A stretch of DNA of 64,000 nt, from positions 3,136,001 to 3,200,000 of the forward strand of contig OZ245002.1 in assembly GCA_965223415.1 (NCBI GenBank). The letters run 5' to 3'. Below the pieces are notes generated by a model. It had not been told where the DNA came from. It saw only the letters and a list, made by a program, of their open reading frames with translations, and did not search any database. Numbering within the stretch: the first letter of the stretch is position 1; every line of letters begins with the position of its first letter. Below, piece after piece: positions 5,460-20,292 of this stretch. The position numbers were made by a program, and so were the translations under genes. This DNA comes from Myxococcota bacterium (lineage in GTDB: Bacteria > Myxococcota_A > UBA9160 > UBA6930).

Positions 5460-7997
5460 TCAGCGCATCGCCGTCTGGATCCGCGGCACGAAGAAGAACT
5501 CGCCGGGCTCCGCGTCGCCGTGCTTCATCTCCCGGTACTCGGGCACCTGGTCGTAGGGGATCATCGACTTCGCCCGGTAGGACACGCGGGCCGCCACGGC
5601 CTGGTGGAGCTGGCTGCCCCACATGATCTGGTTGTTGGCGCGCAGCACCGAGAGCAGCGCCTCCGCGAAGATCGAGTGCCGGCCGCCGCCGCCGTCGGGG
5701 ATCGGGATCAGCCCGCCCGCGGTGAGCGCCATCCGCACCCGCCGCTTGGCCATGGTGGACATCCAGTGGAGGCGCTCCTTCGAGGTGCGCGCGCCCTCGA
5801 TGGAGATGGCGACGTTGCGGGTGATCACGCCCGAGTAGCAGGAATCGGCCACGATCAGCACGTGCTTCGCGTTCATGGCGCCGACCTGGCGGGTCATCTC
5901 GTCGGTCGAGAGCCACAGCGCCGGGTTGTCGTGCTCCGCGTCGACGGGCAGCCAGTAGCCGCTGTGGGAGCCCTCGTCCAGGTGACCGTGGCCCGCGTAG
6001 TAGACCAGCAGGTTGTCCTTCGAGGTGAGCTTCTTGCGCAGCTGGGCCAGGGCCGTCATCAGCTGGTAGCGGTCGGCATCGAGGAGCGTCGTCACCTCGA
6101 AGCCGTAGCGGTTCGTGAGCACCTGGCCGATCTCCCGCGCGTCGGCGTGGGGTGTCTCCAGGTCGGGCATGTGCGCGTAGTTCTGGTTGCCGATCACGAG
6201 CGCGTGGTAGCTGCCGAACTCGATGCCCGGCGAATCGTCCGGCGGCGGCGCGGCCACCGGCGGGAGCCCGCGCCGCACGACGAAGCTGCGGCTCGACTGC
6301 TTGCCCTGCCGGTCGATCGCCACCAGGGTGACCCGCGTGCCCTCGTCGCCCACCTTCACGACGGGCCGGAACACCAGGCTCTCGTCGGTCTCGACCGGCT
6401 CGCCGTTCAGGGTCAGCGCCTCGAGGCCGGCGGGCGCGATCACCTGGCCGACGATCCGGCGCTCGGCCTCCTCGGCGGTCACCGATTCCTCGCCCCGGGA
6501 GGCCAGCGGCGGAAGCTGGGGATCGACCACGTGGATGGTCGGGCCGGCGATGTCGAGCTTCACCTGGCGCTCGGCTTCGGCGAGCTCCTGCTGGCGGCGG
6601 GCCAGGGCCGCCTCCAGCTCGTCGATCTGGGAGGCGAGCGCCTCCGAGCGCTGGGTCAGGCCCGCGAGGCGCTCTTCCTCGCTGCGGATCTCGGAAGCCC
6701 GCGCGGCGAGCTGCTCCTCCAGCGCGGCGAGCTCGCCGGTCCGGCCCTCGAGCTGCGCCGCCTGCTCCTCCGAGCGGCTCGCCAGGCCCTCGAAGCGCTC
6801 GCGCTCCTGGGCCAGCGCCTCGCGCTCGGCGGCCACGCCGCTGCGCTCCTCCTCGAGGGCGGCACGCTGGCCGTCGAGCTCGGCGCGGGCATCTTCCAGG
6901 GCCTTGCGATCGGCGTCGGTCTGCTGGGAGCGGGCGAAGCGCGCCTCGGCCTCGGCCTCGCGCTCCGTCACGCCGAGCAGCCGGTCGCTCGCAGCGCGAT
7001 CGCGCTCCGCCAGCCGGGCCTGCTCCCGGTCGAGCTCGGCGGCGCGCTCGCGAAGCGCCTGCTTCTCCTGGCGCAGCGATTCCTCCCGGGCGGCCAGGTA
7101 GCTGCGGTCATCCTCGAGCTTGGCGCGATCCCGGTCGAGCTCGCGCCGCTCGCTCTCGATCCCCGCGCGGTCGGCGGCCAGGTCGCCAGCGCCGGTGGCG
7201 GGCGCCTCGCCTTGCGAGGTCGGAGCCTCCGTCAAGCCAGCGAGCTCCTTCTCGAGCCGGCGCACGTCGAGGCGCAGGCGATCCGCCTCGTGCTTGCTCT
7301 CGGAGAGCTGGCTCTCGAGCTGGCTCACGTCCGTGCCGGCCCCTGGCGCCATCACGACGCGGCCTTCCAGCTCGTCGATCCCGTAGGAGTCGAGGTAGAG
7401 GCCGAGGGCGCGCTTCGGGTCCCGCGCGACGCCCAGCCCGCGTTCGTGGAGCCGCGCCAGGGCGCGCTTCGCCTGCCGGTGCCCCTGGCCCGCCGCGCGC
7501 TCGTACCAGCCGGCGGCCTGCCCGTAGTCGGGCGGCGTGCCGAGCCCCTGCTCGTAGATCTCGCCCGCGTAGTACTGGGCCGTCGGGTCGCCCTGCTCCG
7601 CGCGCTCGGTCCAGAACGCCAGCCGCTCCGAGTAGCCGGCCGGATCGTAGGCGACGTACTCTCCGCCGCGGATCTCGCAGTCGAGCTGGCTCGTGCTCAC
7701 GACCCGGGGAGGTGCCACGTAGATGGCCTTGCGACCGAGCTTCCGGGTCGTGCCGCGCAAGAGGCAGTCCACGATCTTGAGCCGGTCGATCGCGGCGGCG
7801 GCCGAGGTGGCCGGGCCGGAGGAGGCGGAGGGCGTGAGCTCCAGCGCCGGCGCGGACGCGACAGACCCGCTCGCCGCCGGGGGATCCAGCGCCACGATCG
7901 AGCGGGTCGCCACCGGCTTGCCACCCGCGCAGGCCAGCAGGGCCAGGGCCGCGAGGAGCGACAGGAAGGACAGGGCGGCGGTTCGGTGCTGGGCCAT
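5460..7997 (-). CDS. Lipoprotein with SEL1 repeats, long coiled coil and C-terminal caspase-like (C14) domain
   Basis: Signal with lipobox LLAC; SEL1 repeats (AQYYAGEIYEQGLG, A.WYERAAGQG); long E/R/A-rich helix; ALVIGNQNY, YYAGHG and ADSCYSG dyad motifs. Confidence 0.88.
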   Translation of the reverse strand: MAQHRTAALSFLSLLAALALLACAGGKPVATRSIVALDPPAASGSVASAPALELTPSASSGPATSAAAAIDRLKIVDCLLRGTTRKLGRKAIYVAPPRVVSTSQLDCEIRGGEYVAYDPAGYSERLAFWTERAEQGDPTAQYYAGEIYEQGLGTPPDYGQAAGWYERAAGQGHRQAKRALARLHERGLGVARDPKRALGLYLDSYGIDELEGRVVMAPGAGTDVSQLESQLSESKHEADRLRLDVRRLEKELAGLTEAPTSQGEAPATGAGDLAADRAGIESERRELDRDRAKLEDDRSYLAAREESLRQEKQALRERAAELDREQARLAERDRAASDRLLGVTEREAEAEARFARSQQTDADRKALEDARAELDGQRAALEEERSGVAAEREALAQERERFEGLASRSEEQAAQLEGRTGELAALEEQLAARASEIRSEEERLAGLTQRSEALASQIDELEAALARRQQELAEAERQVKLDIAGPTIHVVDPQLPPLASRGEESVTAEEAERRIVGQVIAPAGLEALTLNGEPVETDESLVFRPVVKVGDEGTRVTLVAIDRQGKQSSRSFVVRRGLPPVAAPPPDDSPGIEFGSYHALVIGNQNYAHMPDLETPHADAREIGQVLTNRYGFEVTTLLDADRYQLMTALAQLRKKLTSKDNLLVYYAGHGHLDEGSHSGYWLPVDAEHDNPALWLSTDEMTRQVGAMNAKHVLIVADSCYSGVITRNVAISIEGARTSKERLHWMSTMAKRRVRMALTAGGLIPIPDGGGGRHSIFAEALLSVLRANNQIMWGSQLHQAVAARVSYRAKSMIPYDQVPEYREMKHGDAEPGEFFFVPRIQTAMR

Positions 7998-8841
7998 GAT
8001 GGTGACTCTGCTCTGGTTGGGTGCGTTCGGTTGCGTCGCGTCCCCCTCCGAGCACGCCGAGCATCGTGCCGGGGAGATGGGACTCTCCGCAAGGACCATT
8101 CGCGGGGGTCCGTTCCTCCACCGGGTCTTTGTTGCGCCGCGGACCTCCGCGGCTCGGGAGCAGGGTCGCTCCACGGGCCCCTTCGGATCACGCGGACCTG
8201 GATCACCTGCCGATCGCTTGCACGTCTATCTCGGCGGCGACGGCTCCCCCCGTGGGGCGCTACGCCATCGCCCGCCCGACCCGACGCCGCGGCAGCTCCT
8301 GGTGCTCGAGCTGATGGCCCACGACCCCAACCCGAGCCTCCTTCTGGGGCGCCCATGTTATCACGGGGTCGAGACCTGCGAGCCGGTCCACTGGACCCTG
8401 GGCCGCTACTCCGAGGCCGTCGTCGAGAGCCTGGTGGCCGCCTTCAAGCGGGTCGTGTCACCCGACCGACCGGTCGTCCTGATCGGCCACAGCGGCGGCG
8501 GCACCCTCGCGATGCTGATGGCCCCGCGGCTCCCGCAGGTGGAGGCGGTGGTGACCGTCGCCGGCAACCTGGACGTGGCGGCCTTCACGGAGCATCACGG
8601 GTTCGGGGCGTTCACGGGGTCGCTGGACCCGGCGGCGTTGCCGCCGCTGCCGGAGCGGGTGCGGCAGATGCACCTGGTCGGCGGGCGGGACGAGGTGGTT
8701 CCGCCGGCGATCGTGGAGGCGGCCATTCGGCGGCAGCCGGGAGCGCGAAGGGTCAATTCGCCGGAGAACGGGCACAACGAGGGGTGGGTGACCGTCTGGC
8801 CCAACGTTCTCGAGGTGCTCGAGGATGAGCTCGGCGGGTAG
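7996..8841 (+). CDS. Exported alpha/beta hydrolase (putative lipoprotein)
   Basis: MMVTLLWLGAFGC signal-like start; HVYLGGDG, LGRPCY, GHSGGG nucleophile elbow, G..D..V and late His; start codon uncertain. Confidence 0.75.
   Translation: MMVTLLWLGAFGCVASPSEHAEHRAGEMGLSARTIRGGPFLHRVFVAPRTSAAREQGRSTGPFGSRGPGSPADRLHVYLGGDGSPRGALRHRPPDPTPRQLLVLELMAHDPNPSLLLGRPCYHGVETCEPVHWTLGRYSEAVVESLVAAFKRVVSPDRPVVLIGHSGGGTLAMLMAPRLPQVEAVVTVAGNLDVAAFTEHHGFGAFTGSLDPAALPPLPERVRQMHLVGGRDEVVPPAIVEAAIRRQPGARRVNSPENGHNEGWVTVWPNVLEVLEDELGG
8163..8191 (-). promoter_or_regulatory. Putative ECF promoter motif copy 1 (inside the hydrolase ORF, pointing to the SEL1-caspase gene)
   Basis: GTGATCCG-N15-CGACCC. Confidence 0.65.
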
Positions 8842-9513: not shown

Positions 9514-10926
9514 CTAGAAGTCGAACCTCGCGCCGACGGTCAACGCGTACTGGTCGACGTAGCTGTCGCCGAGCCGCGTATCGAAGTCGATGAAGGCGAC
9601 CATGCCGCTGGTCAGCACCATGCTCACGCCGGCGCCGACGTTGAACACGTCGCGGTCCGGGCTCTGGGCGCGGAGGCTCAGGCGGGTGCGGTTCAGGTCG
9701 GCAGTGAAGCGGGCGTTGATCGTGCGGGAGTCGTTCTCGAACTCGTGCTCCCACTCGCCGCGCAGGTAGGGCGTGACGATGCCGCTGCCGGTCGAGATGT
9801 CGTAGCTGAGGGTCACGCCGAGGTCCGTCGTCAGGGACGTGATCGACTGGCCCTCGTAGGTGAGGTTCAGGCCCTGAGCACCGCTCTCCCGGGCGCCGTC
9901 GGTATCGACGCCGATGTAGTTCACCTGCAGGTAGGGGTCGATGCCGAGGGCGCCGCTGTCGAGGTTGGCCCCGGCGGCGACGCTCAGGCCCCACTGGTCG
10001 CCGCTCGGGTCGCTGCGCGCCGTCCGGTTCACCGTCGGGTAGACGATGCTGCGCTCGAGGCTGTAGTCCAGGTAGGAGTAGGTCGCGATCGCGTCGACGT
10101 AGAAGGCGTCCTGCTGCCAGGTGCCGTAGGCGGAGAGGCCGTAGGCGTTGCGGTCGAGCTCGCCGGCGCCCCCGTCGAAATCGTTGTCGACGCGGGAGTA
10201 GTTGAACGCCAGGCCGCCCACGAGCGGCTCGCTGAACCGGTAGTCGACACCGACCACCGCGCCGAGGGCGTCGAAGTCGAAGCCGACCTCCTCGTCCCGG
10301 CCGTCGAAGTCGCCCCAGGAGTACAGGCCGTTGCCCCAGAGCCCCCACTTGCCGAGCAGGTCCTGATCCCCCGCGGCGGACCGCTCGCGCAGGGCGCGCT
10401 CGATGTCCTCGCCCTGCAGCGAGCCCCCGTAGGCGTCCCGCAGGTCGAGGCCCGCGAACTGGATGCGCGGGCCGCCTTCGCGCAGGGCCACGAGCCGGTT
10501 GCCGATCACCTCCAGGTTGCGGATGGAGGTCTGGGTCGAGAGGGTGCCGGAGGCCGCCGCCTGGCCGTGGGCCAGGTCCTCGAGGGCCTCGTTGATCTCC
10601 GGGTCCGAGATGTCGAGCAGGCCCGGCACGACGAGCTCGCTGCAGCGATCGAAGAGGTCCTGGGTATCCGCCCCCCAGCCGCGGGTGCCGACGATCGGTG
10701 CCAGGTCGCCGCAGGTGGTGAGGACGAAGTCGCCGCTCAGGCTCTGGAGGCGGCTCTGGCCGCCGAGGGAACCCAGACTCCGCGGAGAGGGCGCCTGCCC
10801 TGCGGGAGCCCCGCCACCGCCACCGCCTCCACCACCGCCGCCCTGGCCGTAGGCCCCGCCGGCGAGGAAGATGCTCGCGATGATGAGCAGGAGCTGAATC
10901 CGGATCGCCCGCGCGCGGACCACCAT
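9514..10926 (-). CDS. Autotransporter beta-barrel outer-membrane protein with a very short passenger
   Basis: Signal peptide, Gly linker, WGLWGNG barrel start, VGVDYRF, PYL.GEWEHEF and terminal ARFDF. Confidence 0.88.
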   Translation of the reverse strand: MVVRARAIRIQLLLIIASIFLAGGAYGQGGGGGGGGGGGAPAGQAPSPRSLGSLGGQSRLQSLSGDFVLTTCGDLAPIVGTRGWGADTQDLFDRCSELVVPGLLDISDPEINEALEDLAHGQAAASGTLSTQTSIRNLEVIGNRLVALREGGPRIQFAGLDLRDAYGGSLQGEDIERALRERSAAGDQDLLGKWGLWGNGLYSWGDFDGRDEEVGFDFDALGAVVGVDYRFSEPLVGGLAFNYSRVDNDFDGGAGELDRNAYGLSAYGTWQQDAFYVDAIATYSYLDYSLERSIVYPTVNRTARSDPSGDQWGLSVAAGANLDSGALGIDPYLQVNYIGVDTDGARESGAQGLNLTYEGQSITSLTTDLGVTLSYDISTGSGIVTPYLRGEWEHEFENDSRTINARFTADLNRTRLSLRAQSPDRDVFNVGAGVSMVLTSGMVAFIDFDTRLGDSYVDQYALTVGARFDF

Positions 10927-11770: not shown

Positions 11771-11875
11771 CGGAGGTCCTTCCTGTCGGGTTCGGAGGTC
11801 GGGGTTCCGAGAGAAGGGGTGGGCCCCGATCCCGCGAGGGGACCGGGGCCCGGGGTGGGGGAGGGAGCGGACGAG

Positions 11876-12199
11876 CTAGCGGTTGCGGCCGGAGACGGCG
11901 CCCACGGTGCCGACGTTCGACACGGCGGTCGCGCGGTTGGCCGTGGCCTTGGTCGTGATGTCCCGGCTGCGGGTCTTGATCTTGACGTCGCCCTCGAGGC
12001 GCGAACCGGCCATCACGGAACCCACGTGGGCCTCGGCGAGCGCGCGGTTGGCACTGGCCTCGGTGTAGATGTTCCGGGTCCGGGCGTCGATGTCGATGTC
12101 CTTGCTCTTGGTGAAGAGGTCGCCCAGGAAGGCCTGCGCGCTCGCGGCGTAGCCGAGGACCAGGGCGGAGGTGACGAGGATCTGGAAGAAGCGGCGCAT
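11876..12199 (-). CDS. Small secreted two-repeat protein, copy A (107 aa)
   Basis: AAGGAG RBS; 23-aa signal ending AQA; paralogous to the two adjacent genes. Confidence 0.88.
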   Translation of the reverse strand: MRRFFQILVTSALVLGYAASAQAFLGDLFTKSKDIDIDARTRNIYTEASANRALAEAHVGSVMAGSRLEGDVKIKTRSRDITTKATANRATAVSNVGTVGAVSGRNR

Positions 12200-12259
12200 G
12201 ATGTTGATCTCCTTGGATCGGTTGGGTTGAGGTGGATCGCAACGCGCGATCACGGAGAG

Positions 12260-12288
12260 GGGTCGCGCTGGCGCGCGCTTCGGATCAC
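12260..12288 (-). promoter_or_regulatory. Putative ECF promoter motif copy 2 (copy A gene)
   Basis: GTGATCCG-N15-CGACCC. Confidence 0.75.
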
Positions 12289-12310
12289 GAACCGGCAGGA
12301 AACCGTCGCC

Positions 12311-12351
12311 AAAAAAGAGAAGCGGCGCCGATCCCGGAGGATCGGCGCCGC
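12311..12351 (-). terminator. Intrinsic terminator after copy B
   Basis: 13-bp stem GCGGCGCCGATCC/GGATCGGCGCCGC followed on the minus strand by TTCTCTTTTTT. Confidence 0.8.
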
Positions 12352-12378
12352 CCTTGGGGGTCGGCTGGCGAGCGGGAG

Positions 12379-12702
12379 CTAGCGGTCGCGGCCCGAGACC
12401 GCGCCCACCACGCCCACGTTCGTCACGGCTGTCGCGTTGTTCGCGCTGGCCTTCGTCGTGATGTCGCCGGTGCGCACCTTGATCTTGACGTCGCCCTCGA
12501 GCCGGGCGCCGGCCATCACCGAACCCACGTGGGTCTCGGCGAGCGCGCGGTTGGCACTGGCCTCGGTGAAGATGTCGCCGGTGCGGGCGTCGATGTCGAT
12601 GTCCTTGCTCTTGGTGACGAGGTCGCCCAGGAAGGCGGACGCGCTGGCGGCGTAGCCCAGGACGAGGGCGGAGGTAATGAGGATCTGGAAGAAGCGGCGC
12701 AT
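12379..12702 (-). CDS. Small secreted two-repeat protein, copy B (107 aa, 16 substitutions vs A)
   Basis: AGGAG RBS, signal peptide ending ASA, same repeats. Confidence 0.88.
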   Translation of the reverse strand: MRRFFQILITSALVLGYAASASAFLGDLVTKSKDIDIDARTGDIFTEASANRALAETHVGSVMAGARLEGDVKIKVRTGDITTKASANNATAVTNVGVVGAVSGRDR

Positions 12703-12769
12703 GATGGTGATCTCCTAGGGATCTGAAGGGTGGATTGGATGGACCGCGGCCCTGCGGTCCATCGCTGAG

Positions 12770-12798
12770 GAGTCGGCGCTGGCTCTGTCTCGGATCAC
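12770..12798 (-). promoter_or_regulatory. Putative ECF promoter motif copy 3 (copy B gene)
   Basis: GTGATCCG-N15-CGACTC. Confidence 0.75.
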
Positions 12799-12838
12799 GC
12801 GTGACGCAGAAACGCAAGATCCGACCCCGGAATGGGAA

Positions 12839-12868
12839 GCGGCGCCGACCCCGGAGGATCGGCGCCGC
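12839..12868 (-). terminator. Hairpin/terminator after copy A'
   Basis: Same stem as 12322-12351 with one substitution; weak U tract. Confidence 0.6.
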
Positions 12869-12894
12869 CTTGGGGGTCGGCTGGGGAGCGGGAG

Positions 12895-13218
12895 CTAGCG
12901 GTTGCGGCCGGAGACGGCGCCCACGGTGCCGACGTTCGACACGGCGGTCGCGCGGTTGGCCGTGGCCTTGGTCGTGATGTCCCGGCTGCGGGTCTTGATC
13001 TTGACGTCGCCCTCGAGGCGCGAACCGGCCATCACGGAACCCACGTGGGCCTCGGCGAGCGCGCGGTTGGCACTGGCCTCGGTGTAGATGTTCCGGGTCC
13101 GGGCGTCGATGTCGATGTCCTTGCTCTTGGTGAAGAGGTCGCCCAGGAAGGCCTGAGCGCTCGCGGCGTAGCCGAGGACCAGGGCGGAGGTGACGAGGAT
13201 CTGGAAGAAGCGGCGCAT
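12895..13218 (-). CDS. Small secreted two-repeat protein, copy A' (107 aa, same protein as A)
   Basis: AAGGAG RBS, ATG at 13218. Confidence 0.88.
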   Translation of the reverse strand: MRRFFQILVTSALVLGYAASAQAFLGDLFTKSKDIDIDARTRNIYTEASANRALAEAHVGSVMAGSRLEGDVKIKTRSRDITTKATANRATAVSNVGTVGAVSGRNR

Positions 13219-13278: not shown

Positions 13279-13307
13279 GGGTCGCGCTGCCCCGGGGGCC
13301 GGATCAC
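13279..13307 (-). promoter_or_regulatory. Putative ECF promoter motif copy 4 (copy A' gene)
   Basis: GTGATCCG-N15-CGACCC. Confidence 0.75.
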
Positions 13308-13379
13308 CGACCGGCAAGAAAATCCGCCCGGATCGTTGTATGAAAGGGGGCCCACGGCGGGATGGAGGGCGGAGGGTCG

Positions 13380-14273
13380 ATGGCGGAAGGCGCGGCAGCG
13401 GTCGGCGATCTCCTCGACCGCGCCGTCGCGGGCCAGGAGACCGCCCTCCTCCAGCTGGCTCGGCGAGTCACCTCCCTCATCGAGGGATGGGGCGCCTACA
13501 CCGTCCAGAGCGACTGGCGGATCCTCACCCAGGAGGCCACCCAGCAGGCCCTGGACGGCTGGCGGAGCAGCCGCCGGGAGGCCCAGGCCGCCCAGTTCCT
13601 GGAGGGGATCGTCCGAAACCGCTTCTGGGGCGAGGTGTTGGACGAGATGTCCCAGAACAACCCGCGGGCCGGCGAGCTCCTCTTCCCCACCATCCGCCGG
13701 CTCCTGGCCCGCTGGGACGGCTCCCGGCGCTTCGAGGCCAGCTGGGACGACGTCGTCCAGGAGGCCACCCACCAGCTCTGGGAGCGCTGGGCTACTGGCG
13801 AGGTGGAGCGGCCCTGGTCCCTCCTGTGCACCATCGCCAAGCGGCGCTTCCTCGATCAGACCCGGAGGGCCAAGGCCACGGAGGATCCGGAGATCCTGGA
13901 CGACCTCTCTGAAGAGGGCGAGGAATCCCCCGGGGGAGAGGTGTTCGCCCAGCAAGCGCTGGACGTGCTAGAGCCCGAGGAGCGGGGCATCGTCGTGCGG
14001 ATGGACATCGAGGGGCAGACCCGCGTCGAGATCGCGAGGGAGCTCGAGATGACCGAGGGCCAGGTGCTCTCGATCCGGCGCGCCGGGCTTCGGCGGATCT
14101 GGCGCTGGGCGGGGGCCGACCTTCCGCCGGAGATCCGGGACGTCTGGGAGGCGATGTTCAAGGGCGCCAAGCGGGCGGGCCCGGAGCAGGTGGCCGCCCA
14201 GCTGGGAATCACCCCCGGGGAAGTCGAGCAGCGGGTCGAGCAGGCCCGGGTGCTCCTGGGGCTGGCGGGATGA
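13380..14273 (+). CDS. ECF-type sigma70 factor with apparently duplicated sigma2 and sigma4 domains (297 aa)
   Basis: DDVVQEAT...LCTIAKRRFLD (sigma2) and LEPEER..V....EG.T..EIARELEMTEGQV.S...RAGLRRI (sigma4), each with an additional diverged copy; GGAGGG RBS. Confidence 0.85.
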   Translation: MAEGAAAVGDLLDRAVAGQETALLQLARRVTSLIEGWGAYTVQSDWRILTQEATQQALDGWRSSRREAQAAQFLEGIVRNRFWGEVLDEMSQNNPRAGELLFPTIRRLLARWDGSRRFEASWDDVVQEATHQLWERWATGEVERPWSLLCTIAKRRFLDQTRRAKATEDPEILDDLSEEGEESPGGEVFAQQALDVLEPEERGIVVRMDIEGQTRVEIARELEMTEGQVLSIRRAGLRRIWRWAGADLPPEIRDVWEAMFKGAKRAGPEQVAAQLGITPGEVEQRVEQARVLLGLAG

Positions 14274-14296
14274 GGGGTCCGGAATTTCGCGATCGG

Positions 14297-14326
14297 GTGA
14301 TCCGAATGGGGGGGGTGGCGCGACCT
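14297..14326 (+). promoter_or_regulatory. Putative ECF promoter motif copy 5 (anti-sigma gene)
   Basis: GTGATCCG-N16-CGACCT; the spacer contains a G8 run. Confidence 0.6.
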
Positions 14327-14364: not shown

Positions 14365-15159
14365 ATGAGCGAACCCAATGACCCTCGCCTCGAGGGCGAC
14401 GACGCCTTCGAGGACGAGCTCGACCGCGCCACCGTCCTGCGGCTGCGCGGCGAGGACCCCCGCGCCGACCGCTGGCAGCCGGAGGACCAGGATCTGGTCC
14501 AGTTCGCGCGGAACCCCCGCGCCCTGGCGCCGGAGCTGCGCGCGCGGATCGACGCCTACCTGGAGAAGCACCCGGCCGAGCGCGACGCCCTGGCCGCCTT
14601 CGAGGTGCTCGCGCCGGCCCCGCCGGTGGCCGAGGCCGCCGAGGCGCCGTCGCTCCTGGCCCGCCTCACCTCTTCCCTCGCCGCCCTGGTGCCCGCTCCC
14701 CGGGCCGTCGCCTCCGCCGCGGCGCTCTTCCTGGTGGCCGGCGTGGGCTTCCTCCTGACCCAGGAGCCGGACGAGCCCGTCTGGCGGGGCCCGGACACGC
14801 CGATCGAGGATCCGATCGGCGGCCCGGACACCGGGCACCCGCCCCTCGACCTGGCCGAGATCGAGCTGGTCCCCGGCGTCGTGATGCCCCTGGAGGCCGC
14901 CTCCCTGCCCACGGCGGGCGAGGTGCTGCTGATCCTCGTCCTGCCCGGTGAGCCCCCGGAGGCGCCCGTCGAGCTGACCCTCCTCCGGGAAGGCGCCGCC
15001 GAGCCCCTGGCCCAGCGGAGCGCCCCCGCCTCCGAGGGGCCCGCCCCCGCCGTCCAGCTGCGTGTACCCGCCGAAGACCTCGAGCCCGGCGCCTACCGGG
15101 TGGAGGTCTTCGAAGGGCCTGCCGTCCCGCCGGTCGAGTTCCTCTTCGAGGTGAGGTGA
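14365..15159 (+). CDS. Putative single-pass membrane anti-sigma factor
   Basis: Directly downstream of the sigma gene; ASD-like helices (PEDQDLVQFA...LRARIDAYLEKHP), one TM helix, C-terminal beta domain (L.PGAYRVEV). Confidence 0.65.
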   Translation: MSEPNDPRLEGDDAFEDELDRATVLRLRGEDPRADRWQPEDQDLVQFARNPRALAPELRARIDAYLEKHPAERDALAAFEVLAPAPPVAEAAEAPSLLARLTSSLAALVPAPRAVASAAALFLVAGVGFLLTQEPDEPVWRGPDTPIEDPIGGPDTGHPPLDLAEIELVPGVVMPLEAASLPTAGEVLLILVLPGEPPEAPVELTLLREGAAEPLAQRSAPASEGPAPAVQLRVPAEDLEPGAYRVEVFEGPAVPPVEFLFEVR

Positions 15160-15239: not shown

Positions 15240-15554
15240 ATGCTGAAGCGCATCCTCTCCATCCTCGCCCTGACCGGGGTCGCCTGCGGCGGCACGCCGT
15301 CGGCGGCCGACGACGGCAAGCCGGTCACGGTCTGCCGGCACGACGCCCAGGGCACCGTGGCCGTCACGAACATCGGCAGCGTGGGCCCCGGCTCCGGCAG
15401 CACGCGGGTTCGCGTCGTGACCGGCAACCGGACGACCGTTGTCGATCCCGAGGGGGAGTGCGTCTTCACCGACGAGCCGCCGCGCCGCCATCCCCTCCGA
15501 GGGGGGGAGGCGAACTTCCCCCGGACGCCCGACGCTTCCGAGGTGCGGAGGTGA
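15240..15554 (+). CDS. Small exported protein with AVTNIGSV motif
   Basis: AAGGA RBS; signal with possible lipobox GVAC; two further Cys. Confidence 0.7.
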   Translation: MLKRILSILALTGVACGGTPSAADDGKPVTVCRHDAQGTVAVTNIGSVGPGSGSTRVRVVTGNRTTVVDPEGECVFTDEPPRRHPLRGGEANFPRTPDASEVRR

Positions 15555-15579
15555 TCCGAGTCGCCGCCTCGCGCGACTC
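15551..15579 (+). promoter_or_regulatory. Putative ECF promoter motif copy 7 (CsgG-like operon)
   Basis: GTGATCCG-N15-CGACTC. Confidence 0.75.
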
Positions 15580-15616
15580 CTCTCGGGGCACGCAGCCCCC
15601 AGCAAAGGAGACCGAC

Positions 15617-15913
15617 ATGGGACGCAAACTCGCCGCCTTCGCCATCATTCCGATGATGCTCTTCGCGGGATCCGCCACCGCGAAGATCAACGAGGGCAAC
15701 ACCTCCGCCAAGAGCAAGCTGAACGTCCTGAAGGCCAAGACGTCGCACCGCCTCAAGGCCGATGAGGGGCAGGACCCCTGCAACCAGAGCCTGAACGCGG
15801 GCAACGTGATCATTCCCGAGGGCACCCGCGCTCCCCGCGAGGTGACCGTCGTGATCGAGGGAGACGTGACCAATGTTGGTTCGATCGTTGGCTCCGCGCG
15901 CTGCCGCCGCTAG
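15617..15913 (+). CDS. Small secreted protein with two Cys and GDVTNVGSI motif
   Basis: AAGGAG RBS; signal ending ATA. Confidence 0.78.
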   Translation: MGRKLAAFAIIPMMLFAGSATAKINEGNTSAKSKLNVLKAKTSHRLKADEGQDPCNQSLNAGNVIIPEGTRAPREVTVVIEGDVTNVGSIVGSARCRR

Positions 15914-17453
15914 CCGCCTCTTCATGGCCGCCGCCCTGGCGCTGCTCTTCGGAGCCTGCGCCACTCCCGGCAACCAGGCTGCCTACACCAGCCGCACGCC
16001 GGGGCTCGACCCCCAGACGACCCGCACGGTCTACTCCGGCGCGCTGGCCTGCATGGACGACCTGCTCCAGTCCTACGGGCCCCAGGGCACGATCATCACC
16101 AGCGTCGGCATCCCGGACGCGACCGGTCAGGTCCAGGTGGGCTCCCGCGACATGCTGATGTCGGCGATCTCCGACATGACACGGCGGAGCGGTGCCTTCA
16201 CCTACGTCGACCTCGACGTCACTCGCGAGGAGTCGCTGGCCATCCACGGCAACTCGCCGGACAAGACCTCGCTCTGGCCCACGTACCTGATCCGCGGGAC
16301 GATCTCGGGCCTCGACGAGAGCGTCATCGACGTGTCGAAGGGCCTGAGCTTCGGCGTGGAGCTCAGTGAGAACGATGCCGCCGCGGCCTACGCCAACAGC
16401 CGCACCTCGTCGGTGGTGTCCCTCGACCTTTTCATCGTGCGCTCGAAGGACCTGGTGCTCCTGCCCGGCCTCAAGGCGAGCAACTCGCTGGCGATCAGCC
16501 GCGCGGGCTCGGCCAGTGAAGCCGGGATCACGATCAAGCAGGTGGGCCTCGACTTCAGCGTCGAGCAGGAGGAGTCCGAGAGCCTGGCTCACGCGGTGCG
16601 CACGCTGATCGAGCTCGGCACTGTCGAGCTGATCGGCAAGTTCGCCCAGGTGCCCTACTGGCGCTGTCTCCAGGTCGAGGGGACGAACCCCGTGGTGATG
16701 AAGGAGGCGGCCGACTGGTACGCCGACATGGACGAGGACGAGAAGATCCTCTTCAGCCAGCGCGTGCTGATCGCGCGGGGCGAGTTCGCCGGGCCCGCCA
16801 CCGGCGAGCTGGACGCCGCCACCAAGGCCGCCATCGTCCGCTACCAGCAGGTGAACGGGCTGATCCCGACCGGTCGGCTCTCCTTCGAGCTCTACCACTC
16901 GATGCTCGGCAACGATCGCCCTGCCGAGGTGGGGGAGCCGGTCACGTTCATCGAGCAGGACGAGACGCCCGACCCGGTGGCGGACCAGGTGCCCGTGCGC
17001 GAGCCCCTGCTCCTGACGCTCACGTCGGCGCGTGGATCCCAGCCGAGCTTCGCGCCGAACGAGATGCTGAGCATCCAGGTCGGCGCGTCGCGGGACGCCT
17101 ACGTGTACTGCTACTACCGGGACGGCGCCGATCGCATCTCGCGCATCTACCCGAACCAGTTCCAGCCCGATCCCTATCTGCCGGCGGGCCAGTACGTAAC
17201 GGTTCCGCCCGTCGACGCCGCGGGACACCCCACGCGCTTCGGCATCCGCTTCGAGCATCCCGGCGCGGCGGAGGAGGTCGCCTGCCTCGCCTCGGACCGG
17301 GAGGTCGGCATCTGGCTGCCCCGGACGCTGAAGCAGCGGGATCTCGCCCCGCTGCCCGTCGGGAGCCTGGCCGAGCTCGAGGCCGCCTTCGAAGAGCTCG
17401 ACGGCGAAGGCCTCGTCCGCGCGCGGCTGCCCATCGAAGTGACCCGCGAGTAG
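15873..17453 (+). CDS. CsgG/HfaB-like lipoprotein with peptidoglycan-binding and DUF4384-like domains
   Basis: Lipobox FGAC; IPDATGQ...DMLMSAI...F.YVD and LIRGTISGLD...VSLDL (CsgG fold-like); TGELDAATKAAIVRYQQVNGLIPTG (PG_binding_1); DAYVYCYY..G...RIYPN (DUF4384-like); alternative start 15924. Confidence 0.78.
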   Translation: MLVRSLAPRAAAASRLFMAAALALLFGACATPGNQAAYTSRTPGLDPQTTRTVYSGALACMDDLLQSYGPQGTIITSVGIPDATGQVQVGSRDMLMSAISDMTRRSGAFTYVDLDVTREESLAIHGNSPDKTSLWPTYLIRGTISGLDESVIDVSKGLSFGVELSENDAAAAYANSRTSSVVSLDLFIVRSKDLVLLPGLKASNSLAISRAGSASEAGITIKQVGLDFSVEQEESESLAHAVRTLIELGTVELIGKFAQVPYWRCLQVEGTNPVVMKEAADWYADMDEDEKILFSQRVLIARGEFAGPATGELDAATKAAIVRYQQVNGLIPTGRLSFELYHSMLGNDRPAEVGEPVTFIEQDETPDPVADQVPVREPLLLTLTSARGSQPSFAPNEMLSIQVGASRDAYVYCYYRDGADRISRIYPNQFQPDPYLPAGQYVTVPPVDAAGHPTRFGIRFEHPGAAEEVACLASDREVGIWLPRTLKQRDLAPLPVGSLAELEAAFEELDGEGLVRARLPIEVTRE

Positions 17454-17513: not shown

Positions 17514-18068
17514 ATGAGCTTCCGAATGCGACGGCCGGCGTGGGTCGCTGGCCTGATCCTGGGTCTGCTGCTGGGCCTTCCGCTCGGCGCAGCCGCCCAG
17601 GACACCCTCCCGACCGCCCCGGTCCGGATGTACGACGAGCCCCTCTCGGCCGACGAGCTGGCCCAGAAGCTCTTTCCGCCCAAGCTCCGCTCGATCGTCC
17701 CGGTCGAGGAGCAGCCGAAGCCCGAGGTGATCGGCTACGCGATCCAGTTCGGCTTCGACTCGGCGGAGCTCCTGCCCGCGGCGAAGCCCTACCTGGACGA
17801 GCTCGGCAAGATGATGAACCTGGAGCGGCTCTCGAGCGCGAGCCTGGTCGTCGAAGGCCACACGGACGCGATCGGCTCCGAGGACTACAACCTCGACCTG
17901 TCGCTGCGACGGGCCCAGGCCGTGGCCGGCTACCTGGCGAAGGCGCACCGCATCGACCCGAACCGCCTCGTGACCCAGGGCCGCGGCGAGAGCCGGCCGC
18001 TGCCGGACCGGGCGCCGACCGATGGCCAGAACCGCCGCGTCCAGTTCGGCGGCCTCGGCGCTCGTTAG
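17514..18068 (+). CDS. OmpA-family peptidoglycan-binding protein
   Basis: IQFGFDSA, VEGHTDAIGS..YN..LS.RRA..V and NRRV motifs; signal peptide. Confidence 0.92.
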   Translation: MSFRMRRPAWVAGLILGLLLGLPLGAAAQDTLPTAPVRMYDEPLSADELAQKLFPPKLRSIVPVEEQPKPEVIGYAIQFGFDSAELLPAAKPYLDELGKMMNLERLSSASLVVEGHTDAIGSEDYNLDLSLRRAQAVAGYLAKAHRIDPNRLVTQGRGESRPLPDRAPTDGQNRRVQFGGLGAR

Positions 18069-18084
18069 GTCAGGGAGCCTACCC

Positions 18085-20292
18085 GTGGTCCGTAGCCTCC
18101 TGGTTGCCCTCGCCGCACTCGCGGCCCTGTTCGGTAGCGTCGCTCCCGGCTGGGCCGCGAAGCGGGCCCTGATCGTCGGGATCAACGACTACCGGGGCGA
18201 GAACAGCGGTGGGCGCTGGCGCGACCTCCGCGGCGCCGTGAACGACGCCGAGGCCATGCGCTCGCTGCTGGTCTCCCGCTTCGGCTTCGCGGGGGACGAC
18301 GTGGTGCTGCTGCGCGACGCCGAGGCGACCCGGGAGCGCATCCTCGCCGAGATCGAGGGGCACCTGGTCGCTCCGGCGAAGCCCGGCGACGTCGCCTTCT
18401 TCCACTTCGCCGGTCACGGCTCCCAGGTGCGCAACGCCCAGGGCCAGGAGCTCGATCGGCTGGACGAGACGATCGTCCCCGCCGATTCGCGGCTGGGCGC
18501 GCCGGACATCCGCGACAAGGAGCTGCGGGTCCGCTTCAACGACGTGCTCGACCGGGGTGCCGACCTGGTCGCCGTCTTCGACAGCTGCAGCAGCGGCTCC
18601 ATCCTGCGCTCGCTCCAGGCGGTGCGCTTCCTGCCGCCGGGCGACGCGCCGGCTCCCGCCCTGGCGCCGGAGCGCCGGGCGCCGCCGGAGGAGCGCGGCG
18701 CGCTGCTGCTCTCCGCCGCCTCGAGCGGGCTGCCTGCCGCCGAGACGAAGGACGCCGCCGGCCGGCCTCGCGGCGCCCTGAGCTTCGCCCTGATCCGCGC
18801 CCTGCGGGAGGCGGCGCTGGACGAGCCCGCGGACCAGCTCTTCCTGCGCGTGCGCAGCGCGCTGCTGGCCGAGGACCTGGGCCAGGCCCCGGTGCTCGCC
18901 GCCACCTCCGAGCGTCGCGCCCGCCCGCTGCTCGGCGGGGAGGCGCAGGCGGCGGGCGCGACCCGGGTCGGCGTCCTGCGCGTCCGCAGCGACGGCCTCG
19001 TCGAACTCGACGCCGGCGCGGCCAGCGGCCTGAACCCGGGGGCCGAGCTGGTCTCGAACCGCATTGGCGATACGCGCCGGCTGCGCGTGGTCGAGGTGCC
19101 GGGCGTCGCCCTGGCCCTGGCCCGGGTGAGCGGCGGCGATGCGGCGTCGCTCCAGCCGGGCGATCTCTTCCGTCTCGACCGTTGGAGCGCCCCGGACGGC
19201 GCCGCGCTGCGCATCCTGCTGCCCGAAGCGGCGCCGCCCGCCCAGGGGAAGGCGCTTCACGCCGCCGCCGCGGCACTGCGCGTCGAGGCCGCCGCCCGGG
19301 GCGTGACCTGGGTCGAGGATCCGACCACCCAGCGCCCGACCCACCGCCTGGTGTGGCGGGCGGCCGGCGGCTGGATGCTTCGCGGGCCCGACGCCGAGCA
19401 GCCCGTCGGTGCGCTCGACCCGGCGCGCGCCGCCTCCCTCGTCTCCGGGCTGCCGCAGGGCGCGAGCCTGCTCGTGGAACTTCCCCCCGCCCCGGGCCTG
19501 CGCCGCGCCCTCGCCGAGCGGGCCGCGGCCGCCGGAGGCTCCATCGAGCTGGTCGGCCCGGAGGCGGCCCACTTCGCGCTCGTCGGCGTCCTGCGCGGCG
19601 ACGGCGTTCACCACGCCTGGGTGCGGCCCGGGGCTTCGCTTCGCCGTGAGGTCGGCGGGCTCCCGCCGCGCAGCGACTGGACGAAAGCCCAGGGTGCGAG
19701 CGCTGCCCTCGGCGCCTCCCTCGACGCGCTGCTGCGCATCCGCTCGTGGCTGACGCTTCCGGCGCCGCCCGACGAGGGGCGCTTCCCCTACCGCCTCGCC
19801 CTGCGCCGCGAGAGTGACGGCCGCCGCGTTCCCGGCGGCGCCGTGCGCGCCGGCGAGCGCTACCGCATCGCCCTCGAGGCCGAGCGCCCGGGGCCGCGCT
19901 CATCGATCGAGCCGCGCTACGTCTACGTCTTCGCCATCGACGCCTTCGGCCGCCAGGCGCTGGTGTTCCCGACCGCTGACCGCGGCAACGCCGAGAACCG
20001 CATGCCGCCCCCGGGCGCCCTCGGCGCCCCCGCGCCGCCGGTGCTTCCCGTCGGCTCGATCGAGATCGCGCCGCCCTTCGGCCACGAGACCCTGGTCATG
20101 GTCACCAGCGCCACGCCCTTGGCCGACCCCCGGGTCCTCGAGGGCCGCGGCGTCCGCACCCGCACCGGCTCCGCCCTCGAGCAGCTGCTCGGCTGGGTCG
20201 GTACCCCGTCCCGCGCGCCCCGTACCGCCACCCCCACCAGCTGGGGCATCCAGCGGCTCTCCCTCGTGAGCCTGCCCCGTCAAGGAGAGTGA
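18085..20292 (+). CDS. Secreted caspase-like (C14, metacaspase-type) protease with C-terminal DUF4384-like domain
   Basis: Signal ending GWA; KRALIVGINDY, LRGAVNDA, FAGHGSQ, DETIVPAD and FDSCSSG; YVYVFAID.FG....VFP tail. Confidence 0.88.
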   Translation: MVRSLLVALAALAALFGSVAPGWAAKRALIVGINDYRGENSGGRWRDLRGAVNDAEAMRSLLVSRFGFAGDDVVLLRDAEATRERILAEIEGHLVAPAKPGDVAFFHFAGHGSQVRNAQGQELDRLDETIVPADSRLGAPDIRDKELRVRFNDVLDRGADLVAVFDSCSSGSILRSLQAVRFLPPGDAPAPALAPERRAPPEERGALLLSAASSGLPAAETKDAAGRPRGALSFALIRALREAALDEPADQLFLRVRSALLAEDLGQAPVLAATSERRARPLLGGEAQAAGATRVGVLRVRSDGLVELDAGAASGLNPGAELVSNRIGDTRRLRVVEVPGVALALARVSGGDAASLQPGDLFRLDRWSAPDGAALRILLPEAAPPAQGKALHAAAAALRVEAAARGVTWVEDPTTQRPTHRLVWRAAGGWMLRGPDAEQPVGALDPARAASLVSGLPQGASLLVELPPAPGLRRALAERAAAAGGSIELVGPEAAHFALVGVLRGDGVHHAWVRPGASLRREVGGLPPRSDWTKAQGASAALGASLDALLRIRSWLTLPAPPDEGRFPYRLALRRESDGRRVPGGAVRAGERYRIALEAERPGPRSSIEPRYVYVFAIDAFGRQALVFPTADRGNAENRMPPPGALGAPAPPVLPVGSIEIAPPFGHETLVMVTSATPLADPRVLEGRGVRTRTGSALEQLLGWVGTPSRAPRTATPTSWGIQRLSLVSLPRQGE

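Follow-up and report, generated by a model that had tools for sequence, protein, structure and literature searches.

To our knowledge, sigma factors of the extracytoplasmic function (ECF) type have a minimal sigma2-sigma4 architecture as their defining feature, and the known extensions to this core are domains unrelated to sigma. Among the closest described systems to the one reported here are the canonical group 4 ECFs with class I zinc anti-sigma factors, such as E. coli sigmaE/RseA, M. tuberculosis SigL/RslA and S. coelicolor SigR/RsrA. Sigma-70 proteins depend chiefly on region 2.2 to bind the beta' clamp helices of RNA polymerase. A sigma-like domain is also known in PhyR, which acts in the alphaproteobacterial general stress response. 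Here we analysed a stretch of 64,000 nucleotides (the window) from a Myxococcota bacterium (GenBank assembly GCA_965223415.1, contig OZ245002.1, positions 3,136,001 to 3,200,000). We identified a gene at positions 13380..14273 of its forward strand, on which all features of the sigma protein described below also lie, encoding an ECF-type sigma factor (P0001) with the nested domain order sigma2'-sigma2-linker-sigma4-sigma4', in which the primes denote the outer copies.

Nested order of the sigma domains

The gene is an open frame of 297 codons, translated into 297 amino acids, and shows the codon-position pattern of guanine and cytosine (GC) of a real gene in a window of 71% GC. The relatives have N-termini that match a start at 13380, and an alternative in-frame ATG was noted at 13362. 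The curated Pfam and NCBIfam thresholds were passed by the inner pair of domains alone. Inner sigma2, the canonical copy (residues 83-168, 13626..13883), was recognised by Sigma70_r2 at residues 103-165 (25.4 bits, or 27.9 when scanned alone, against a cutoff of 24). Inner sigma4 (residues 186-244, 13935..14111) was recognised by Sigma70_r4_2 (35.5 bits, cutoff 25.7) and Sigma70_r4 (34.9 bits, cutoff 24.1), both at residues 191-240. The NCBIfam model TIGR02937 (sigma70-ECF) covered residues 116-239 with 49.5 bits (cutoff 42.9), and no NCBIfam equivalog or subfamily model reached its cutoff on the sigma protein. Neither the Pfam scan nor the structural model placed a sigma3 domain between sigma2 and sigma4, and the sole Sigma70_r3 signal in the whole-protein Pfam scan was sub-threshold (22.9 bits, cutoff 25.3) and fell after sigma4, at residues 263-290. 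No Response_reg or other switch domain was found in the sigma protein by Pfam or NCBIfam. The protein departs from the minimal two-domain architecture of ECFs in that roughly 85 residues at its N-terminus and roughly 53 at its C-terminus form additional domains.

On the evidence of sequence comparison and a predicted fold, the degenerate N-terminal module sigma2' (residues 8-88, 13401..13643) is a full-length homologue of sigma2. An earlier note on this DNA had paired residues ~10-85 with ~86-163, and this doubling was borne out. BLASTP of residues 1-90 against 86-169 gave 28% identity over 54 residues (E=0.002), and hhalign comparison of slices from a 25-member family alignment gave E=1.2e-4 for the N-module and sigma2, against E=0.32-0.49 for four mismatched control pairs (N/sigma4, N/C, sigma2/C and sigma2/sigma4). 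With domain alignments of five sequences (the window and four related genomic loci), the same comparison returned a probability of 92.4% (E=5.3e-7, 77 columns), and the match ran end to end, from residues 9-86 to residues 84-161, close to the boundaries first proposed. An exhaustive search of 1.84 billion representatives added independent support through two ECFs of ordinary length, P0049 (211 residues) and P0056 (190 residues), each with a Pfam sigma4 above cutoff and a sub-cutoff Sigma70_r2 match. Their single sigma2 aligned to the N-module with 34-36% identity (E=1e-10); the alignment to the inner sigma2-sigma4 was weaker (23-27% identity, E=1e-7). Modelled alone from the five-sequence alignment, sigma2' was predicted to form four helices (predicted local distance difference test, pLDDT, 88; predicted template modelling score, pTM, 0.79). 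The top six PDB matches to this model were all ECF sigma2 domains, namely S. coelicolor ShbA and five chains of E. coli sigmaE region 2, with template modelling (TM) scores of 0.53-0.66, probabilities of 0.85-0.96, and a root-mean-square deviation of 3.1 Å in five cases and 6.5 Å for ShbA. An Atlas feature search also pointed toward sigma2 for this module, as a lead only.

The assignment of the C-terminal module sigma4' (residues 245-297, 14112..14270), with three modelled helices of which the last is acidic, is weaker, and we describe it as sigma4-like. Comparison by hhalign with the protein's own sigma4 gave a probability of 88% (E=2.9e-6, 19 columns) with the 25-member slices, and of 78% (E=1.8e-5, 34 columns) with the five-sequence alignments; the 34-column alignment pairs LPPExR with LEPEER, FKGAKR with IEGQTR, and two helices of the helix-turn-helix (HTH). 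Residues 243-297 scanned alone gave sub-threshold Pfam matches only, to Sigma70_r4_2 (17.8-18 bits, E=0.002-0.003, cutoff 25.7) and to Sigma70_r3 (16 bits). A PDB profile search with the C-module returned generic HTH matches, an Atlas feature search returned mostly sigma4-family clusters (scores 0.84-0.87, again leads only), and a word-indexed protein search limited to residues 243-297 returned the query alone.

Both assignments gain some support from searches with module models. A hidden Markov model (HMM) of 25 N-modules matched the sigma2 region in nine of 62 canonical ECFs (domain independent E-value, i-E, <1e-3), and a C-module HMM matched the sigma4 region in six of the 62 (i-E <1e-3), always at their C-terminal end; these 62 sequences had been pre-selected as matches to the sigma protein, the E-values apply to 62 sequences only, and such pre-selected sets also underlie the comparison of canonical positions given below. 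The C-module matches spanned nearly the whole module in two of those six proteins, and in three others of weaker E-value.

Several results weigh against this interpretation of the terminal modules. Residues 1-90 had no Pfam match of any kind, Sigma70_r2 was found in none of five family N-modules, and a PDB sequence-profile search with the N-module gave no sigma match. The Foldseek E-values for sigma2' were weak (0.3-0.6), though the top matches were consistent. Sub-threshold Sigma70_r3 HTH matches were found in all five C-modules against Sigma70_r4_2 in two of the five, and BLASTP found no match between the C-module and inner sigma4. Because Sigma70_r3 matches as well or better and BLASTP is negative, the label "sigma4" is less secure than "sigma-type HTH".

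The nested doubling proposed in the earlier note is therefore firm in its sigma2 half and sub-threshold in its sigma4 half: the second sigma4-like HTH holds in the profile comparisons (78-88%), and does not hold in BLASTP or at the Pfam cutoffs. The expectation that a Pfam scan would return each domain twice failed for sigma2. With all five N-modules missed by Pfam, the annotation of the protein says no more than sigma-70 family sigma factor.

At the DNA level, the repeat that the earlier note placed 76 codons apart is real. One copy lies in sigma2' (13529..13562) and the other in inner sigma2 (13757..13790), 228 nucleotides (76 codons) downstream, with 79% identity over 34 nucleotides. A 17/18 match between the copies might suggest gene conversion or a recent duplication of the DNA, but we rejected both. 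Across their lengths sigma2' and sigma2 share 46.8% DNA identity and 20 of 77 residues, and identical codons at all five shared positions (QEAT-Q) have a probability of 0.15 under the codon usage of the window. The QEAT match is also peculiar to the window, with a different family consensus at this position of the outer copy. Thus, shared residues and codon bias suffice to explain the match, and it is not evidence of recent duplication.

The full-length model had a pLDDT of 86.6 and a pTM of 0.54, and was confident at residues 1-167 and 185-297. Its helices fall at residues 2-16, 20-36, 47-64 and 70-91 in sigma2', at 95-112, 119-138 and 145-167 in sigma2, at 185-195, 199-210, 215-221 and 226-245 in sigma4, and at 250-259, 268-275 and 279-292 in sigma4'. 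In helix 70-91, which is unbroken, the last helix of sigma2' passes into the first of sigma2. The intervening linker (residues 169-185, 13884..13934) is a variable, acidic stretch of 17 residues that is predicted to be disordered (pLDDT <50). Because local confidence is high while pTM is low, the model is consistent with two lobes, sigma2'+sigma2 and sigma4+sigma4', on a flexible linker and of uncertain mutual position, the packing being read from the confidence figures. The best whole-model PDB matches were ECF sigmas in holoenzymes or with anti-sigmas (SigL, SigH, sigmaE, SigW and BldN), and comparisons with sigma32, SigB and WhiG aligned 230-275 columns at a low TM score of about 0.2.

Conservation of the family and asymmetric degeneration of its copies

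A word-indexed search identified 26 relatives, of which 24 (290-321 residues) covered at least 96% of the query and two were shorter fragments. The 24 full-length relatives were 48-66% identical to the query by alignment and 50-66% by best BLASTP segment. The relatives derive from metagenome-assembled genomes (MAGs) of Myxococcota, one of them being named as Myxococcota bacterium. The exhaustive search of 1.84 billion representatives yielded only 10 clusters at E <=1e-10, with divergent full-length clusters, down to 36% identity, still aligning end to end. After a gap, the next matches were ordinary ECFs at E >=7e-8 over the inner region only; ordinary ECFs of 145-240 residues align just to query residues ~83-250. 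The sigma gene was present in four genomic loci (L001-L004), all in MAGs of Myxococcota or "Deltaproteobacteria". The doubled architecture is rare, and is common to a small group of Myxococcota.

We investigated the origin of the copies in a tree of sigma2 domains, built by a quick method from 86 rows and 83 retained columns, and including 36 of the 62 canonical ECFs (domain i-E <=1e-4). Outer and inner copies were each monophyletic, with support of 100 and 99 in the Shimodaira-Hasegawa-like approximate likelihood ratio test (SH-aLRT), and both fell within one 59-row clade together with nine canonical ECFs (support 93). The duplications of sigma2 and sigma4 predate the radiation of the family. 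Within the clade, the outer copies grouped weakly with P0037, P0076, P0063, P0056 and P0049 (SH-aLRT 85, below 95), and the inner copies grouped weakly with P0042 (SH-aLRT 83, below 95). These separate partners raise the idea of an insertion of one ECF into the linker of another. Against it, the best canonical matches of the C-module (P0067, P0081, P0054 and P0068) differ from the partners of the N-module, and the tree supports are below 95 on only 83 columns; we make no claim for such an origin.

The two pairs of copies have been conserved to very different extents. Invariant columns make up 8% of sigma2', 24% of sigma2, 0% of the linker, 39% of sigma4 and 22% of sigma4', with the highest entropy of all segments in the linker. 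Taking as canonical the positions conserved at >=70% by residue class in 36-37 canonical ECFs, inner sigma2 keeps 18 of 23 and outer sigma2' 10 of 23, and inner sigma4 keeps 20 of 26 and outer sigma4' 12 of 26. The suggestion in the earlier note that the outer pair is the more degenerate one agrees with these counts and with its fewer invariant columns. In sigma2' the losses fall on the E-D-V-V-Q block of region 2.2 and on the D..R positions that close sigma2 (region 2.4), and in sigma4' on the polar or basic positions that correspond to the recognition helix; both outer copies keep the hydrophobic core positions. The difference extends to charge, with mean net values of +3.6 for the recognition helix of sigma4 and -1.4 for its counterpart in sigma4', and of +4.4 for the last helix of sigma2 and -1.0 for its counterpart in sigma2'.

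Given this asymmetry in conservation, canonical positions and charge, we regard the inner pair as the probable working sigma, and infer that the outer copies no longer bind core RNA polymerase or DNA. The outer copies hold invariant residues of their own, indicating that they are nonetheless under selection. These are L12, L24, R28, G38, A39 and W46 in sigma2', and G245, P249, P250, W256, F260, K261, G262, R265 and P268 in sigma4'.

The downstream anti-sigma candidate and control of the sigma factor

We identified a gene directly downstream of the sigma gene, at 14365..15159 on the forward strand, that encodes a candidate single-pass membrane anti-sigma factor of 264 residues. A gene of this family directly follows the sigma gene in all four related loci, with coordinates of 4611-5471 in L001, 10962-11771 in L003 and 5583-6392 in L004. 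The layout of the window's protein, judged by eye, is that of a single-pass anti-sigma and comprises ~110 cytoplasmic residues, a hydrophobic stretch at ~112-132, and then ~130 residues. A Pfam scan of this protein gave no match. Its relatives in L001 (22.6 bits, two matched stretches) and L003 (23.9 bits) exceed the Pfam zf-HC2 cutoff of 22.2. The L003 relative also weakly resembles (E=0.015) the M. tuberculosis protein of PDB 3hug_B, which we take to be the anti-sigma RslA.

Two HxxxCxxC motifs, ~58 residues apart, were found in 16 of 19 distinct family members, and the L002 protein carries the second motif only, so that at least one motif is present in 17 of the 19. The window's anti-sigma and P0112, which are 50% identical to each other, have none, both being devoid of the first zinc module and of the ligands of the second. 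The window's protein is shortened at its N-terminus, beginning past the first module, and Y/H/E replaces its second motif. These two proteins appear from their sequences to form a zinc-free subfamily of anti-sigmas of the zinc-associated anti-sigma (ZAS) type. The doubled sigma is usually paired with a two-motif anti-sigma, the window being an exception. A full-text literature search for tandem ZAS anti-sigmas returned nothing relevant.

We favour a reading in which the inner pair works and the outer pair are accessory protein-protein modules in the control of the sigma factor, duplicated long ago, and would give it a probability of roughly 55%. The inner sigma2-linker-sigma4 would act as an ordinary ECF. 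By analogy with established ECF holoenzyme structures, it would bind the beta' clamp helices and the beta flap of RNA polymerase, with the linker threading between, and read the -10 and -35 promoter elements. Each outer copy may pack on its inner twin, giving the N-lobe (sigma2'+sigma2) and C-lobe (sigma4+sigma4') of the model. The outer copies could then either enlarge the surface that is gripped by the cognate membrane anti-sigma encoded downstream, or shield the inner domains until release.

A more tentative extension of this reading is that sigma and anti-sigma doubled together. Each zinc-thiolate module would clamp a different lobe or domain pair, as a "double lock" that might be the ancestral form of the family. 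Two redox- or zinc-sensitive latches, or one latch and proteolysis, would have to open together, which would give two-input gating of a single ECF; the zinc-less, one-module anti-sigma of the window would then represent a later simplification of the lock, acting on a sigma that is still doubled. Two points bear against this extension. The two modules of the anti-sigma resemble each other only weakly by hhalign (E=0.0055, probability 6.6%, 22 columns), and we did not retain them as a clear internal duplication. In addition, the outer domains cannot owe their retention in this genome to a double lock, because the window's anti-sigma lacks both zinc motifs and the first module.

Comparably tentative is autoinhibition in cis, in which the outer copies would fold back on the faces of the inner domains that bind RNA polymerase and DNA until a signal or the core enzyme displaced them, with the anti-sigma as a second, independent layer. 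Analogous parts would be played by region 1.1 in primary sigmas and by the C-terminal extensions in ECF41/42. It would fit the placement of each outer copy, with high confidence in the model, in the lobe of its twin, and the strong conservation of the junctions (N80, F82, W83 and G84; R238, R239, W241, R242, G245, P249 and P250). ECF groups with multiple layers of control, and an N-terminal extension of SigC proposed to block DNA contact, are reported in PMC7826278. A twin that is constitutively packed need not be displaceable, however, and the anti-sigma gene is kept here, although such genes are usually absent with extension-regulated ECFs, according to PMC8999054.

The earlier note had also suggested a built-in decoy or anti-anti-sigma. 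In a decoy arrangement, similar to PhyR, the outer pseudo-sigma would compete in cis for the anti-sigma and so tune the threshold of release. The outer pair does consist of a degenerate sigma2 plus a sigma4-like module, as in the sigma-like domain of PhyR (abstract of PMC4551977), and most anti-sigmas of the family have two modules. We nevertheless consider a decoy unlikely, as no receiver or other switch domain was found, a fixed 1:1 decoy in cis has no obvious route of switching, and the model puts the outer copies in different lobes with their twins and not together.

Less likely still are added contacts with DNA or RNA polymerase, of which an upstream or extended -35 contact made by sigma4' would be one, and a second promoter specificity. 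The sigma4' module has an HTH, and directly follows sigma4, where upstream DNA would be expected to lie. The earlier note had listed both an extra DNA contact and a second specificity, and both are disfavoured: throughout the family, the outer counterparts of the DNA-contacting helices carry a neutral to acidic charge; the outer copies have lost the blocks of regions 2.2 and 2.4 as well as the canonical polar and basic positions, and are less conserved than the inner ones. Finally, the view that the terminal segments are unrelated extensions with a chance or generic helical likeness would accommodate the failure of the Pfam and PDB profile searches to find sigma in the N-module and the generic HTH matches of the C-module, and is very improbable, and for sigma2' largely refuted, given that matched pairs scored E=5e-7 to 1e-4 where the four mismatched controls scored 0.3-0.5, that the N-module aligns better than the inner copy to the sigma2 of ordinary ECFs, and that the six top fold matches are all ECF sigma2 domains.

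Genomic neighbourhood and comparison with known systems

We identified several genes around the sigma and anti-sigma genes that encode envelope or caspase-domain proteins. Upstream, on the reverse strand, are a caspase (Peptidase_C14)+Sel1 gene (5460-8174), an autotransporter beta-domain gene (9514-10926), and three tandem paralogous genes for secreted proteins of ~106 residues each (11848-13218). The latter proteins have a signal peptide (MRRFFQIL...AQA) and internal ANRA-x-A...VG-x-V repeats, and no Pfam match. Their genes fall in a family of 300-nucleotide direct repeats (11848-12147, 12351-12650 and 12867-13166; 83-96% identity), with hairpin-like repeats between them at 12314-12359 and 12831-12876. 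Because homologues adjoin the sigma gene in L002 and L003, these secreted proteins are candidate members of its regulon. Downstream, a small forward-strand open reading frame (ORF; 15458-15913, with a signal-peptide-like start at ~15620) lies between the anti-sigma and lipoprotein genes; it has no Pfam match, and an L003 homologue with 35% identity over 133 residues. The lipoprotein gene (15873-17453) encodes 526 residues with PG_binding_1 and DUF4384 domains and a weak CsgG match; L002 and L003 have a conserved counterpart close to their sigma gene (42% identity). The lipoprotein gene is followed by genes for an OmpA-family protein (17514-18068) and a caspase+DUF4384 protein (18022-20292). 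Taken together, the conserved neighbours between 5460 and 20292 (secreted repeat, CsgG-like lipoprotein, OmpA-family and caspase-domain proteins) suggest an envelope-related regulon.

The DNA around the sigma gene also contains a recurrent octamer, GGATCACC, found 14 times in the window against 3.0 expected, a count reached in none of 100 shuffles. Three genomes (window, L001 and L002) have it upstream of the sigma gene, and four (window, L001, L003 and L004) have its reverse complement GGTGATCC just past the sigma stop codon. The sites are at 13301-13308 and 14296-14303 in the window, 3405 and 4503 in L001, 9885 in L002, 10869 in L003, and 5499 in L004. An A/T run often comes 8-12 nucleotides after the octamer, an uncommon feature at 71% GC. 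Extended Shine-Dalgarno sequences, that is, complements of the 16S 3' end, or overlap with a TGA stop account for some copies, but not for those on either side of the sigma gene. We considered GGATCACC as the -35 element of the sigma factor and claim no promoter, as its spacing to a candidate -10 varies from 13 to 34 nucleotides and several copies are Shine-Dalgarno or stop overlaps. In L003 and L004 hardly any intergenic space is left between the sigma gene and the conserved ORF directly upstream (ending ...HENGHFLFVPRV). The sigma genes of the window, L001 and L002 have a non-coding upstream region instead, which in the window and L002 separates the sigma gene from an oppositely oriented gene.

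As this family shows, a single chain can carry duplicated sigma domains, of which one copy probably retains the sigma function while the other is reused. It provides a natural system in which to ask what sigma2 and sigma4 folds do when freed from binding RNA polymerase and DNA, whether a sigma/anti-sigma interface can double on both partners, and how modules of this kind escape annotation pipelines. Synthetic circuits built on ECFs might draw orthogonal parts from it as well.

Full-text literature searches for a sigma2-sigma2 or sigma4-sigma4 architecture returned nothing relevant. The doubled-domain group is likewise absent from the group descriptions examined in PMC7826278 (main text and supplement), where an unnamed group may contain it. 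Extensions that copy sigma domains are not described in the available portions of that study, of the review of non-canonical ECFs (PMC8999054), or of a study of ECF evolution (PMC7671368). As in the extended ECF groups covered by those portions of PMC7826278 and PMC8999054, the sigma2-sigma4 core of the present family bears conserved additions, here N- and C-terminal, with a likely role in modulating activity. In contrast to those groups, both ends are extended, each extension is a degenerate copy of the adjacent sigma domain, and the anti-sigma gene is kept.

The group 3 sigmas (sigma2-sigma3-sigma4) are of similar length, and the C-module has sub-threshold matches to Sigma70_r3; unlike in group 3, no sigma3 lies between sigma2 and sigma4, and the r3-like match comes after sigma4. 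The sigma-like domain of PhyR is similarly a degenerate sigma2-sigma4 unit without sigma activity and with a role in protein-protein contacts. PhyR is a separate protein with a receiver and binds NepR, whereas here the degenerate unit is nested in the chain of a working sigma in which no receiver was found. Finally, the canonical group 4 ECFs and their class I zinc anti-sigmas resemble this system in that the inner pair passes the ECF models, and in that relatives, though not the window itself, encode a single-pass zf-HC2 membrane protein directly downstream. The family differs from these canonical pairs on both partners, as the sigma of the window adds a sigma2-like module before sigma2 and a sigma4-like module after sigma4, and most of the cognate anti-sigmas carry two HxxxCxxC motifs instead of one.

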